Position numbers and translations under genes: made by a program. A stretch of 4,324 bases of DNA from positions 1 to 4,324 of the IMG/VR virus record IMGVR_UViG_2671180781_000004. The stretch is one strand, 5' to 3'. Below the pieces are notes generated by a model that did not search any database, was not told the origin of the DNA, and was given only the letters and a program-made list of their open reading frames with translations. Source of the DNA: a virus. Lineage: Duplodnaviria; Heunggongvirae; Uroviricota; Caudoviricetes. Shown here one piece after another: positions 1-4,324 of the stretch. The number at the start of each line of letters is the position of its first letter. Positions within the stretch are counted from its first letter, which is position 1.

Positions 1-1
1 G

Positions 2-454
2 AATCTGTTCGGTCTGGTCACCGGAATGGCGGAGGACCTGCAGAGCCTGGTGGGGGCCACGGTGGTCCGCCGCCGGGTGTATGCCCGTTTTCTGGATGCG
101 GTGAATTTTGTGGCGGGCAATCCGGAAGCGGACCCGGAGCAGGAGCTGAGCGACCGCTGGGTGGTGGAGCAGATGTCAGAGCTGACGGCCATGACAGCCT
201 TGTTTGTGCTGGCAACACCGACGGAGACGGACGGAGCGCTGTTTCCTGGTCGCATCATGCTGGCGAACACCTGTATGTGGGATTACCGGGGAGATGAATG
301 CGGGTATAACGGTCCTGCGGTGGCGGATGAGTTCGACACCCCCACCACGGATATCCGTAAGGACAGATGCAGCAAGTGCATGCGCGGGTGTGAGATGCGC
401 GGCATGGTGGCTAATTTTGGCGGTTTCCTTTCCATTAATAAACTTTCGCAGTAA
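2..454 (+). CDS. L: Tail tip assembly protein L (gpL-like), 5'-truncated by the window edge; C-terminal cysteine-rich domain present
   Basis: Open frame runs from the window edge (frame of nt 2) to TAA at 452-454. The translation (...MAEDLQSLVGATVVRRRVYARFLDAVNFVAGNP...NTCMWDYRGDECGYNG...DRCSKCMRGCEMRG...) is recognisable as the C-terminal part of lambda gpL, including its cysteine cluster. It lies immediately upstream of K, as in lambda. Confidence 0.9.
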   Translation, partial: NLFGLVTGMAEDLQSLVGATVVRRRVYARFLDAVNFVAGNPEADPEQELSDRWVVEQMSELTAMTALFVLATPTETDGALFPGRIMLANTCMWDYRGDECGYNGPAVADEFDTPTTDIRKDRCSKCMRGCEMRGMVANFGGFLSINKLSQ

Positions 455-464
455 ATCCCGGTTT

Positions 465-1208
465 ATGACACAGACTGAATCAGCGATTCTGGCACATGCC
501 CGGCGGTGTGCGCCTGCGGAGTCGTGCGGCTTCGTGATAAGCACGCCGGAGGGGGAGCGGTATATCCCTTGTGTGAATATTTCCGCAGAGCCGGAGGCGT
601 ATTTTCGTATCGCACCGGAAGACTGGCTGCGGGCAGAGATGCAGGGGGAGATTGTGGCACTGGTCCACAGTCATCCCGGTGGGCTGCCCTGGCTGAGCGA
701 GGCTGACCGGCGGCTGCAGATAAAAAGCGCACTGCCCTGGTGGCTGGTCTGCCGGGGTGACATTCACAAATTCCGCTGTGTGCCACATCTGACAGGACGG
801 CGCTTTGAGCACGGGGTGACGGACTGTTACACGCTGTTCCGGGATGCCTACCATCTGGCGGGAATTGATATGCCGGATTTTGAGCGTGAGGATGACTGGT
901 GGCGTAACGGTCAGAACCTTTACCTGGACAATATGGCGGTCACCGGCTTTTACCGGGTGCCCCTGTCCTCTGCACAGGCGGGCGATATCCTGCTGTGCTG
1001 CTTTGGCGCATCGGTGGCCAATCATGCCGCCATATACTGCGGCAACGGTGAGCTGCTTCACCATCTGCCTGAACAACTGAGTAAACGGGAGAGGTATTCC
1101 GAAAAATGGCAACGACGAACGCATTCAGCCTGGCGTCACCGCCACTGGCACGCATCTGCCTTCACGGGGATTTGCAACGATTTGGCCGCCGCCTCAGCCT
1201 GTATGTGA
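465..1208 (+). CDS. K: Tail tip assembly protein K (gpK-like), 247 aa, with an N-terminal JAB/MPN (JAMM) domain and a C-terminal NlpC/P60 domain
   Basis: ATG at 465, 10 nt after the L stop; TGA at 1206-1208. The protein starts MTQTESAILAHARRC..., as in lambda-type K proteins. JAMM motif H-S-H-x7-S-x2-D at residues 68-81 (nt 666-707). NlpC/P60-type Cys at residue 121 (TDCYT, nt 825-827) and His at 187 (NHAAIY, nt 1023-1025), followed by HH at 199-200. No obvious Shine-Dalgarno, so translation is probably coupled to L. The six-frame ORF starting at 204 is only the open frame extending back into L. Confidence 0.87.
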   Translation: MTQTESAILAHARRCAPAESCGFVISTPEGERYIPCVNISAEPEAYFRIAPEDWLRAEMQGEIVALVHSHPGGLPWLSEADRRLQIKSALPWWLVCRGDIHKFRCVPHLTGRRFEHGVTDCYTLFRDAYHLAGIDMPDFEREDDWWRNGQNLYLDNMAVTGFYRVPLSSAQAGDILLCCFGASVANHAAIYCGNGELLHHLPEQLSKRERYSEKWQRRTHSAWRHRHWHASAFTGICNDLAAASACM

Positions 1209-1786
1209 ACACGGCAGCGGAAGCCATTCGCGCCCTGTCGATGCAGATGCCGGGCTTTCGCCGTCAGATGAACGAAGGCTGGTACCAGATACGTATTCGC
1301 GGTGAGGACACGGCACCGGAGGCGGTGTACGCCCGTCTTCACGAACAGCTGGGTGAGGGGGCGGTCATCCATATTGTGCCGCGACTGGCCGGGGCCGGAA
1401 AGGGTGGACTGCAGATTGTGCTGGGGGCGGCAGCCATCGTGGGCTCTTTCTTCACTGCCGGGGCATCAATGGCGTTATGGGGTTCAGCCCTGGCAGCCGG
1501 TGGTTTTTCTGCCACCACGATGCTGTTTTCACTGGGGGCCAGCATGATACTGGGTGGTGTGGCTCAGATGCTTGCCCCGAAGGCTAAAGTACCGGAGTAC
1601 AAAAGCACGGATAACGGTAAACAGAACACGTACTTTTCCTCGCTGGATAACATGATTGCCCAGGGGAACCCGATGCCGGTGCCTTACGGTGAAATGCTGG
1701 TTGGCTCCCGGCGAATCTCTCAGGACATCAGTACCCGTGATGAAGGCGGTGGCGGGAAGGTCGTGGTTATCGGGCGGCAGAGGTAA
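1106..1786 (+). CDS. I: Tail tip assembly protein I (gpI-like), 226 aa; N-terminal ubiquitin-like (beta-grasp) region followed by a Gly/Ala-rich hydrophobic segment
   Basis: ATG at 1106, preceded by GGGAGAGG (1087-1094) as a ribosome-binding site; TAA at 1784-1786. The protein (MATTNAFSLASPPLARICLHGDLQRFGRRL...VIHIVPRLAGAGKGG...) is recognisable as lambda gpI. The start lies 103 nt inside the 3' end of K in a different frame, which is the same overlap geometry as lambda K/I. Confidence 0.9.
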   Translation: MATTNAFSLASPPLARICLHGDLQRFGRRLSLYVNTAAEAIRALSMQMPGFRRQMNEGWYQIRIRGEDTAPEAVYARLHEQLGEGAVIHIVPRLAGAGKGGLQIVLGAAAIVGSFFTAGASMALWGSALAAGGFSATTMLFSLGASMILGGVAQMLAPKAKVPEYKSTDNGKQNTYFSSLDNMIAQGNPMPVPYGEMLVGSRRISQDISTRDEGGGGKVVVIGRQR

Positions 1787-1826
1787 AAAGAATAAAAAAA
1801 TCCCGCAGTGTTGCGGAGCTGCGGGA
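1787..1826 (-). terminator. Putative rho-independent terminator for leftward (minus-strand) transcription, abutting the I stop codon
   Basis: Inverted repeat TCCCGCAG (1801-1808) / CTGCGGGA (1819-1826) with a 10-nt loop. On the minus strand the hairpin is followed by TTTTTTTATTCTTTT (complement of 1800-1787). On the + strand no T-tract follows it, so it is oriented for the minus strand only. Confidence 0.5.
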
Positions 1827-1956
1827 GAGTTACGAAGATTAACTATAGAGAATTATTCTTATGTCACGACAAAAAACATTAACGCAGAGAAATTATTAGT
1901 ACCACAGTCAGTTTGTGAAAATGTGAAGATATTCAGAATTTTTATTCAGTCATGAT
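1827..1956. other. AT-rich intergenic core between I and J with no credible protein-coding capacity; possible moron or small-RNA locus
   Basis: My hand count gives about 38 G+C in 130 nt (about 29%), against visibly GC-rich flanking tail genes. It is flanked by the two hairpin terminators. It contains short direct repeats: AGAGAATTATT / AGAGAAATTATT (1847-1857, 1886-1897), TGTGAA twice (1914-1919, 1922-1927) and TATTCAG twice (1930-1936, 1943-1949). Confidence 0.4.
1892..1919 (-). promoter_or_regulatory. Candidate sigma70 promoter on the minus strand: -35 TTCACA, 16-bp spacer, -10 AATAAT
   Basis: Read on the minus strand: TTCACA (complement of 1919-1914), a 16-nt spacer, then AATAAT (complement of 1897-1892). 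These match the consensus at 5/6 and 5/6. The predicted start would be near 1885, about 90-100 nt upstream of the minus-strand terminator. Found by eye in AT-rich DNA, so the false-positive risk is high. Confidence 0.3.
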
Positions 1957-1990
1957 ACAGGCATCCTCCGGGATGCCTGTTGTTTTTGTG
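1957..1990 (+). terminator. Putative rho-independent terminator on the + strand, ending 32 bp upstream of the J start codon
   Basis: Perfect 10-bp GC-rich stem ACAGGCATCC (1957-1966) / GGATGCCTGT (1971-1980) with tetraloop TCCG, followed directly by TTGTTTTTGTG (1980-1990). Confidence 0.65.
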
Positions 1991-2021
1991 CGTAACAGTT
2001 ATCACAGTAAAGGGTGAGACA

Positions 2022-4324
2022 ATGGGCAAAGGTGGCGGCAAGGCGCACACGCCGGTAGAGGCAAAGGACAATCTTAAGTCCACGCAGATGATGAGCGTGA
2101 TTGATGCCATTGGTGAAGGGCCGATTGAAGGTCCGGTGAAGGGGCTGCAGAGTATCCTGGTGAACAAAACCCCGCTGACGGACACGGACGGCAATCCTGT
2201 GATACATGGTGTGACAGCGGTCTGGCGCGCCGGGGAGCAGGAGCAGACACCACCTGAAGGCTTTGAGTCCTCCGGGGCGGAAACCGCACTGGGCGTGGAA
2301 GTGACGAAGGTAAAGCCGGTGACGCGCACCATTACGTCCGCGAACATTGACCGCCTGCGGGTCACCTTCGGGGTGCAGTCACTGTTGGAGACCACCTCAA
2401 AGGGCGACCGTAATCCCTCTTCTGTCCGACTGCTGATTCAGTTGCAGCGTAACGGTAACTGGGTGACGGAAAAGGATGTCACCATTAACGGCAAGACCAC
2501 CTCACAGTACCTGGCGTCGGTGATTCTGGAGAATCTGCCTGAGCGGCCCTTTAACATCCGGATGGTCCGGGAGACAGCGGACAACACCCCGGACCAGCTG
2601 CAGAATAAGACGCTCTGGTCGTCATACACCGAAATCATCGATGTGAAACAGTGCTACCCGAACACGGCGATTGTGGGGTTGCAGGTGGATGCGGAGCAGT
2701 TCGGCGGCCAGCAGATGACGGTGAACTACCATATCCGCGGTCGCATCATCCAGGTGCCGTCAAACTATGACCCGGAAAAACGCACGTACAGCGGCATCTG
2801 GGACGGCAGCCTGAAACCGGCATACAGCAACAACCCGGCCTGGTGCCTGTGGGACATGCTGACTCACCCGCGCTACGGCATGGGAAAACGTCTGGGGGCG
2901 GCAGACGTGGACAAATGGGCGCTGTATGCCATTGCGCAGTACTGCGACCAGACGGTCCCGGATGGTTTCGGGGGCACAGAGCCGCGGATGACCTTTAATG
3001 CGTACCTGTCACAACAGCGTAAGGCGTGGGACGTTCTCAGTGATTTCTGCTCGGCGATGCGCTGTATGCCGGTATGGAACGGCCAGACGCTGACGTTCGT
3101 TCAGGACCGCCCGTCGGATGTGGTGTGGCCGTACACCAACTGCGATGTGGTGGTGGATGATAACGGCGTGGGGTTTCGCTACAGCTTCAGCGCCCTGAAG
3201 GACCGCCACACGGCGGTGGAGGTGAATTACACCGACCCGCAGAACGGCTGGCAGACCTCCACGGAACTGGTGGAAGACCCGGAAGCCATACTGCGCTACG
3301 GGCGCAACCTGCTGAAGATGGATGCGTTCGGCTGCACCAGTCGCGGTCAGGCCCACCGTGCCGGGCTGTGGGTGATAAAGACCGGACTGCTGGAAACGCA
3401 GACGGTGGATTTCACGCTCGGGTCACAGGGGCTGCGTCACACACCCGGTGACATTATTGAAATCTGTGATAACGACTATGCCGGGACCCTGACCGGCGGA
3501 CGTATCCTGTCCATCGATGCCGCCAGCCGCACCCTGACACTGGACCGTGAGGTGACCCTGCCGGAGACAGGTGCCGCCACGGTGAACCTGATTAACGGCA
3601 GCGGTAAGCCGGTGAGCGTGGCCATCACTGCACACCCCGCGCCGGACCGGATACAGGTCAGCACCCTGCCTGATGGTGTGGAGACATACGGTGTATGGGG
3701 GCTCTCCCTGCCGTCACTGCGTCGTCGCCTGTTCCGCTGTGTCTCCATCCGGGAAAACACGGACGGCACCTTTGCCATCACGGCGGTGCAGCACGTACCG
3801 GAAAAAGAAGCCATCGTGGATAACGGGGCCAGCTTTGAGCCGCAGTCAGGCACCCTGAACAGCGTTATTCCACCGGCAGTGCAGCACCTGACGGTGGAGG
3901 TGAGCGCGGCTGACGGTCAGTATCTGGCACAGGCGAAATGGGACACGCCGCGGGTGGTGAAGGGTGTGCGCTTCAGTCTGCGCCTGACCAGTGGAAGCGG
4001 TGAAAACAGCCGCCTGGTGACCACCGCCATCACCGCAGACACGGCGCACCGTTTCAGTGGCCTGCCGCTCGGGGAATACACCCTGACAGTCAGGGCAATT
4101 AACAGTTATGGCCAGCAGGGCGAACCGGCCACCACCACCTTCCGGATTAACGCGCCAGCAAAACCCGCCACCATTGAACTGACGCCGGGGTATTTTCAGA
4201 TAACGGCGGTCCCGCGTCTTGCGGTGTATGACCCGACGGTACAGTTTGAGTTCTGGTTTTCGGAGACAAAAATCGCAGACACATCTCAGGTGGAAACCGC
4301 TGCCCGTTATCTGGGGACCGGCAG
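2022..4324 (+). CDS. J: Central tail fibre / host specificity protein J (gpJ-like), N-terminal ~767 codons; 3' end lies beyond the window
   Basis: ATG at 2022, preceded by AAGGGTGAG (2010-2018). The frame stays open to the window end. The translation ([54 protein letters not shown]...[45 protein letters not shown]...) is highly similar, by recall, to the lambda J N-terminal and central regions. Confidence 0.93.

Follow-up and report, generated by a model that had tools for sequence, protein, structure and literature searches.

The DNA analysed here (the window, 4,324 nucleotides, positions 1 to 4,324 of the IMG/VR virus record IMGVR_UViG_2671180781_000004) was the L, K, I and J part of a lambda-like tail module from an E. 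coli prophage. The stretch from position 1787 to about 1945, between the tail genes I and J, is predicted to be a self-contained small RNA (sRNA) gene that is encoded on the minus strand and has a promoter and a terminator of its own. We consider it very probable that its product is a trans-acting, Hfq-dependent sRNA of the PasB family that is expressed from the lysogen. Judged by its sequence, the window copy is a divergent allele of PasB.

The left side of the window contained a partial gene L (ending at 454; minor tail protein L in the RefSeq homologue) and gene K (465-1208; a C40 peptidase in the RefSeq homologue). They were followed on the plus strand by the tail assembly gene I (1106..1786 in the list of open reading frames, stop codon 1784-1786; 'tail assembly protein' in the RefSeq homologue) and by the 5' part of the tail tip or host specificity gene J (2022..4324, ATG at 2022), which was recognised from its translation and from RefSeq homologues annotated as gpJ. 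The I protein was 66% identical to the lambda-type I protein, and the closest full-window match in the complete E. coli genomes had 98.8% identity. The long form of I (ATG 1106, 226 aa) overlapped the end of K by 103 nt (window 1106-1208), as in lambda. RefSeq starts the I homologues at a downstream GTG (window 1205, 193 aa), and the start of this gene is thus annotated inconsistently.

A sequence-only reading of this DNA had described an expanded and AT-rich spacer between I and J, and its measurements were confirmed. Namely, I ended at 1786 and the ATG of J was at 2022, so that the spacer (1787-2021) was 235 bp long, versus 60 bp in lambda (15445-15504, between the end of I at 15444 and the start of J at 15505), in agreement with the value of about 60 bp given in that reading. 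The core at 1827-1956, for which about 29% GC had been counted, had a GC content of 0.292, and the whole spacer 0.374, versus 0.59 and 0.60 in the flanking coding DNA. The leftward hairpin with a U-tract at the left side and the rightward one at the right side were both recovered by the terminator scan and by folding. The scan reported three sites per 600 bp versus 0.6 expected, and the spacer had one site on the minus strand and one on the plus strand.

The same reading had assumed that transcripts initiated inside the spacer would be stopped at both of its boundaries. Rightward initiation inside the spacer found no support: the promoter scan found no plus-strand (rightward) promoter in the spacer, its sites being on the minus strand only, and a single leftward promoter had been overlooked. 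This promoter was of the sigma-70 type (1892..1919, minus strand; 10/12 matches in the promoter scan), with the -35 element TTCACA (1919-1914), a 16-nt spacer and the -10 element AATAAT (1897-1892). We placed the putative 5' end of the sRNA at G1885, 7 nt past the -10 element, which gave a predicted RNA of ~92 nt (1794..1885, minus strand), assigned to the PasB family by homology to the E2348/69 PasB locus and to the I-J spacer of Sakai Sp15. The gene ran against the tail operon, and the RNA ended at about 1794, 8 nt from the stop codon of I. The predicted RNA was longer (92-99 nt) than the 83-85 nt reported for the homologues, suggesting a different start site or a processed RNA.

The 3' end of the sRNA was formed by a predicted Rho-independent terminator (1794..1826, minus strand; terminator scan and fold) with an 8-bp stem (1826-1819 paired with 1808-1801) and a U7 tail encoded by the A-run at 1800-1794. 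A shorter alternative stem could be drawn at 1817-1802. Since the terminator stem was invariant in 19 of the 20 aligned variants, covariation was uninformative for it, and the variant alignment contained no conserved structure other than the terminator. Directly 5' of the terminator was a single-stranded UUAAUCUUC block (1834..1842, minus strand) that was conserved in the variant alignments and is a putative seed. Further upstream in the RNA, the allele-specific pyrimidine motif UUCUCU (1852-1847, minus strand; CUCCUU, UUCCUU or CUCCAU in other alleles) adjoined the ARN repeat tract AAGAAUAAU (1860-1852, minus strand). This tract is a candidate site for the distal face of Hfq, and at least three ARN triplets were present at this place in 39 of the 40 distinct variants. 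Trans-acting sRNAs that depend on Hfq typically have such an unstructured body with ARN repeats and a U-tailed terminator. Rfam gave no match in the window at E <= 1, and it had no PasB model.

The characterized relative of this element was PasB (pathogenicity-associated sRNA B) of EPEC O127:H6 E2348/69, an 83-nt RNA encoded on the minus strand of prophage PP6 at NC_011601.1 1466343-1466261 (PMC8550237, Table S6). It has been reported to sit between E2348C_1436 and E2348C_1437, and was detected with the Northern probe AATCCCGCAGTGATCGCGGAGCT (PMC8550237). We found that E2348C_1436 was I (1465575-1466255) and E2348C_1437 was J (1466496-1469969), which placed PasB in a 240-bp I-J spacer and antisense to the operon; in the drawing of Pearl Mizrahi et al. 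it overlapped with the 3' UTR of the gene upstream (PMC8550237). In that study PasB was mapped by RIL-seq, confirmed by Northern blot, had 37 RIL-seq interactions and was Hfq-dependent (PMC8550237). In its differential-expression tables, the base means in the EPEC lysogen were ~5 for I and ~15 for J, and 482 and 1082 for pasB. The log2 fold changes of pasB, in a comparison that we took to be the hfq deletion versus the wild type, were -6.8 and -2.4 and were significant in both tables (PMC8550237). Since pasB was abundant while I and J were near zero, the homologue was an autonomous Hfq-dependent sRNA expressed from a repressed prophage.

The window spacer could be aligned with the E2348/69 spacer from end to end with 90% column identity, and the promoter and both terminators were conserved. 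The PasB Northern probe corresponded to window 1799-1820 with two differences, namely one substitution and one 1-nt deletion. When the window RNA was compared with the 83-nt PasB, 57 of the 83 positions were identical (69%), the longest shared word was 17 nt, and the 3' terminator was nearly identical. Thus, the window element had the I-J slot, the strand opposite to the tail operon, the homology, and the terminator with an 8-bp stem and U7 that define the family here. It also shared the promoter zone, the ARN tract and the UUAAUCUUC block with EPEC PasB. On the other hand, PasB had the motif CUCCUU and the -10 element TATAAT, whereas the window copy, which would be expressed by analogy with PasB, had UUCUCU and AATAAT. 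A published genome survey used a BLAST word size of 28, and the PasB variants that it reported differed by a few nucleotides only. Since the longest word shared with the window copy was 17 nt, such a survey would probably miss it. Zhu, Shabalina and Storz placed the putative PasB seed just 5' of the terminator (bioRxiv 10.64898/2026.05.13.724894). The seed was only predicted there, and no PasB target is known to have been validated (Zhu et al. 2026, bioRxiv 10.64898/2026.05.13.724894).

Three sRNAs of EHEC O157:H7 Sakai appeared to belong to the same family. EcOnc22 has been reported in Sp15 (2902714-2902774, plus strand) as an RNA of ~85 nt on Northern blots that was destabilised in an hfq deletion (Tree et al. 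2014, PMC4104026, Table S2). EcOnc23 was in Sp14 and EcOnc24 in Sp11, and all three were Hfq-CRAC peaks (PMC4104026, Table S2). Their published coordinates refer to NC_002695.1. In NC_002695.2, each of them was located in a 240-bp I-J spacer, with the same relative position in all three and an orientation antisense to the tail operon, and the Sp15 spacer was homologous to the window spacer along its whole length. The offset between the genome versions was taken from AgvB1, which was ~140 bp higher in NC_002695.2 than in NC_002695.1. A second landmark was an sRNA of the EcOnc08/21/42 family at 2924155-2924336, which could contain the published EcOnc42 peak only if this peak was moved by between about +40 and +220. 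With +140, EcOnc22 was moved to ~2902854-2902914, inside a predicted PasB-like RNA at 2902836-2902926 (91 nt), and the shifted peak covered the ARN tract, the UUAAUCUUC block and the 5' arm of the terminator. Given this offset correction of about +140 bp, EcOnc22-24 were apparently the EHEC members of the PasB family. The Sakai copies were a different allele from that of the window, with the CUCCAU motif, a non-consensus -35 element and the 240-bp spacer.

The PasB entry in Table S6, in its accessible part, named no EHEC homologue (PMC8550237), and a 2021 review gave the EcOnc22 targets as unknown in the part available. The equation of EcOnc22-24 with PasB was not made in those parts of the PasB and EcOnc literature that were examined. 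The 2014 Sakai sRNA coordinates were ~140 bp lower than those of the current RefSeq, at least over 1.94-2.92 Mb, and Table S2 of Tree et al. will therefore lead to wrong features when it is used on the current Sakai genome. EcOnc51/PasA was tried as a further coordinate landmark and rejected as ambiguous because Sp12 had two tandem PasA-like terminators ~150 bp apart. In this Sp12 locus (NC_002695.2 2237451-2237684), which was flanked by the holin gene and ECs_2262, the two tandem PasA-like sRNA 3' ends had the same strand. In the Sakai-type allele, moreover, the -35 region was replaced by a 10-bp perfect palindrome, GGCAATTGCC, between a CRP-type site and the -10 element (minus strand, positions 3302-3311 of locus L160, NC_002695.2 ~2902804-2902813); this palindrome might be the site of a second regulator.

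The unit recurred in 149 phage records, mostly of Stx1a, Stx2a and Stx2c converting phages. The sequence-only reading had proposed to check whether the insert is variable or absent in relatives, and it was variable: the unit was present in ~149 of the ~259 phage records that had I at at least 60% identity, and lambda was without it. That reading had deduced horizontal acquisition from the AT-richness of the core. Composition over 130 bp is weak evidence for this, and the real evidence for acquisition was the presence/absence polymorphism in close relatives. Among complete E. coli genomes, megablast found the spacer in 1662 of 5426 (~31%), full-length in ~5%, and it was unannotated in all records among the matches listed. 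When one genome per species was scanned, the promoter word turned up nowhere but in E. albertii and in two tiny contigs from Asaia and Streptomyces assemblies. These contigs, of Asaia platycodi (546 bp) and of Streptomyces flavalbus (3408 bp), had exact matches to 24 nt of the promoter zone, and the latter contained a complete PasB-like unit; assembly contamination was the most likely explanation for both.

An earlier set of loci had been selected on a word from the promoter zone, which made conservation in this zone circular, and a set anchored on the terminator was used instead. It comprised 137 viral loci with 40 distinct RNAs of 92-104 nt. From 5' to 3', the features common to the 40 variants were GCGUUA, a U-run, the ARN tract, the pyrimidine motif, UUAAUCUUC and the terminator with U7. 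The pyrimidine motif was CUCCUU in most of the variants and UUCCUU or CUCCAU in others, and the window type, UUCUCU, was found in two of the 40 distinct RNAs. In most alleles the motif was anti-Shine-Dalgarno-like, and it was changed in the window type. The window allele was found in several independent contigs, and 20 genomes matched it at at least 99%; strain Z1323HEC0108, for instance, had a spacer match of 100%. Since its pyrimidine motif differed from that of EPEC PasB, it is plausible that the window allele has a target set different from that of EPEC PasB.

Several IMG/VR contigs had rearranged copies. Namely, the 3' half of the sRNA gene was joined to internal sequence of an L gene in one contig (L141), the promoter zone was replaced by unrelated DNA in another (L139), and the promoter zone together with the J side was joined to unrelated DNA on the left in a third (L033). 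Judging by these three junctions, the sRNA unit is evidently a frequent recombination joint.

The two terminators had been thought to delimit the insert, and for the right one this was incorrect. The plus-strand hairpin with its T-tract (1957..1990; hairpin 1957-1980, T-tract 1981-1990; TGTTTTTGTG) folded at -19.9 kcal/mol (z = -4.75), and none of 200 shuffles was as stable. Among hairpins of the window class, 98.6% of the cells were paired and one pair changed between U-A and C-G via U-G; the statistics of such pair changes were weak, with seven sequences and 55 of 500 shuffles reaching the observed value. The 60-bp spacer of lambda contained a hairpin as well (AAACCGCC-TGCG-GGCGGTTTTGTCATTT with flanking A- and T-runs; lambda 15461-15489, or L002 1262-1290), and it was followed by the J ribosome-binding site. 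Additionally, 58 of the 118 related loci diverged completely to the right of about window position 1946. In one of the related loci (L017) the spacer was 343 bp long and had the same leftward unit followed by an unrelated right flank with a plus-strand terminator, and further classes of right flank existed besides the window and L017 types. Since lambda and the unrelated flanks had hairpins of their own, the plus-strand terminator was a standing feature of this junction that did not depend on the sRNA unit. The terminator at 1957-1990 is, from this comparison, an ancestral element of the I-J junction and not the boundary of the insert. The insert proper would extend from 1787 to ~1945 (~160 bp), and the remaining 76 bp would be the equivalent of the lambda-type spacer. 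A terminator-like structure inside the late operon thus seems to be conserved at the I-J junction. The alternative right flank itself (L017 7921-8100), which about half of the loci with PasB had, contained a very stable bidirectional terminator with A- and T-runs at its sides, AAAACCCCGGTATC-TGCT-GATACCGGGGTTTCTCTTT (-27.1 kcal/mol, z = -8), and ~100 bp of unassigned DNA before J; it gave no significant Rfam match at a permissive threshold.

Directly upstream of the -35 element there was a CRP-type palindrome, TGTGA-AGATAT-TCAGA (1922..1937, symmetric with respect to strand, centre 1929.5), 24 nt upstream of the -10 element, which is a candidate activator site. With its flanks (1919-1940) it read AAATGTGAAGATATTCAGAATT, and TGTGAAGATATTCAGA matched the CRP consensus TGTGA-N6-TCACA at nine of the ten core bases. 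The window contained one CRP-type match versus 0.15 expected, and 30 of 200 shuffles also had one. In the set anchored on the terminator, for which this site had played no part in the selection, the palindrome block was at least 97% conserved save for two central positions, and it was more conserved than the -35 element or the RNA body. A further set of 57 distinct units was selected for carrying the palindrome and was informative only on its centre, its spacing and the -35 element. In these units the centre varied (AGATAT, AGAATT, AGAGTT, AGAAAT), the -35 element was TTCACA in 42 and unrelated in 15, and a -10-like hexamer (TATAAT, AATAAT or TATCAT) was exactly 24 nt from TGTGA in 53. In a Stx2a phage with an I protein only 74% identical, the site and its spacing were kept and the intervening DNA was unrelated. 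The breakpoints to the alternative right flanks began just beyond the palindrome, which made it the outermost conserved element of the unit.

A class II CRP site is canonically centred at -41.5. The palindrome centre was 32 bp from the upstream edge of the -10 element, which would be -44.5 with a start at the putative G1885, 3 bp off the canonical position. We tentatively suggest CRP control of the sRNA promoter, as a possibility that falls somewhat short of even chances. In the EPEC study, the 'non-activating' growth condition was reportedly LB at 27 C and the 'activating' condition glucose-containing DMEM at 37 C. PasB was higher in EPEC under the former than under the latter (PMC8550237), which would fit catabolite control and is far from specific. 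The two PasB papers mentioned neither a promoter nor CRP (PMC8550237; bioRxiv 10.64898/2026.05.13.724894). Alternatively, the palindrome may be a short conserved 'linker' left by modular recombination.

Phage morons, such as lom and bor of lambda, are autonomous units of promoter, gene and terminator that have been inserted among conserved genes. The proposal of an autonomous moron-like unit was borne out: the unit was absent from lambda, where the two flanking genes are adjacent, its composition was deviant, it had a promoter and a terminator of its own, and its EPEC homologue was expressed in the lysogen while the neighbouring late genes were off, as the window copy would be by analogy. However, its cargo was an sRNA and not a protein, and it pointed against the operon, so the term 'moron-like' applies to its architecture only. 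The prophage sRNAs AgvB and AsxR were similar in being prophage-borne and Hfq-bound and in having ARN motifs, a variable 5' part and a conserved 3' terminator (Tree et al. 2014). They differed in their location at the PR' moron site downstream of Q, in their length of 51-60 nt and in their unrelated sequence. The assignment of the window sRNA to the AgvB/AsxR family was rejected, given that there was no Rfam match, that the site of that family was PR' and not the tail module, and that the sequences were unrelated. We know of no sponge activity of PasB. EvrS/Esr023 was also rejected as a candidate, being 155 nt long and single-copy in CP-933N.

The homology, the position, the strand and the intact signals of the window copy were established here, and expression and Hfq dependence have been demonstrated for its homologues; we infer the expression, the 5' end, the seed and the targets of the window allele. 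In the mechanism that we propose, the sigma-70 promoter at 1919-1892 would drive an RNA of ~92 nt ending at the U7 terminator beside the I stop codon, and by homology the lysogen would produce this sRNA without need of the late operon, which is silent there. Hfq would bind and stabilise it via the U-tail and probably also via the ARN tract. The sRNA would then act in trans on mRNAs of the host and of the prophage, with which it would pair through the single-stranded stretch that separates the ARN tract from the terminator. In uninduced lysogens, the plus-strand terminator presumably keeps rightward transcription out of J unless it is antiterminated by Q.

The position of the gene also allowed another function, in which the sRNA would be primarily a cis-antisense regulator of the tail operon, acting through RNase III cleavage or modulation of J after induction, or would be titrated by the late mRNA. 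The position and orientation of the gene, which were kept in every I-J context examined, made the sRNA complementary over its full length to the late mRNA between I and J. However, in EPEC lysogens the tail genes were essentially silent while PasB was abundant and had 37 partners in trans, so that a cis function was not its main role there. The examined part of the RIL-seq table had no PasB chimera with E2348C_1436 or E2348C_1437, and lambda assembles its tails without the sRNA unit. The free divergence of the RNA body was not decisive, because a cis-antisense RNA also allows it. We regard a cis-acting role, whether primary or additional, as unlikely. At a similarly low level we place a broader model in which PasB-type units are interchangeable 'seed alleles' in one fixed slot of the lambdoid tail operon, all under the same CRP-type site and also coupled to the late operon through J trimming or through titration by late mRNA on induction. 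If this were true, prophages would plug different target specificities into the carbon-status signalling of the host.

It was also considered that the unit might be a decaying relic that is not expressed here, with the spacer providing only a terminator pair that insulates I from J. The -10 element AATAAT is one step from the consensus, the UUCUCU motif was as uncommon as noted above, and many such prophages are cryptic. Against this, the promoter, the palindrome, the ARN tract, the UUAAUCUUC block and the terminator were all intact, AATAAT was the -10 element in 22 of the 57 distinct units, including the Sakai type with an RNA detected by Northern blot, and the same allele recurred in independent contigs and genomes. 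Thus, a relic appears quite improbable to us. Still less credible, and in our opinion hardly worth retaining, was the idea that the spacer is a gene for a small protein or a cassette of protein-binding sites without an RNA product. Short ORFs could be drawn on both strands, but none was conserved on either: the longest closed ORFs in the RNA were 0-11 aa and differed between variants, and the plus-strand mini-ORFs lost their start codon or shifted frame in EPEC. The sequence-only reading had thus been right to report no protein-sized ORF and to prefer a regulatory RNA, the homologues being Hfq-dependent sRNAs. The binding-site cassette, which it had named as the other likely content, could point to the conserved palindrome; yet the homologues gave a discrete Hfq-bound RNA, and the palindrome was at a fixed distance from the -10 element, as a promoter element would be. 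The preferred reading is thus the trans-acting PasB-family sRNA.

The kind of element and its family were already known. New in this analysis were the assignment of the spacer, the divergent allele, the apparent identity of EcOnc22-24 with PasB, the boundary of the insert with the putatively ancestral terminator, and the CRP-type site. The finding leaves the general view of prophage sRNAs unchanged and will not surprise a specialist. However modest in this sense, it gives a name and a testable mechanism to an unannotated spacer that is present in many Stx-converting phages and in ~31% of complete E. coli genomes. Two literatures, on EcOnc22-24 of EHEC (2014) and on PasB of EPEC (2021, 2026), appear to cover one sRNA family. 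The CRP-type site, conserved at a fixed distance from the -10 element, provides a concrete hypothesis for the control of the sRNA. Moreover, the PasB family is broader than the published survey suggests, and its body alleles differ exactly where pairing with targets is expected, so that strains may differ in their sRNA regulation.
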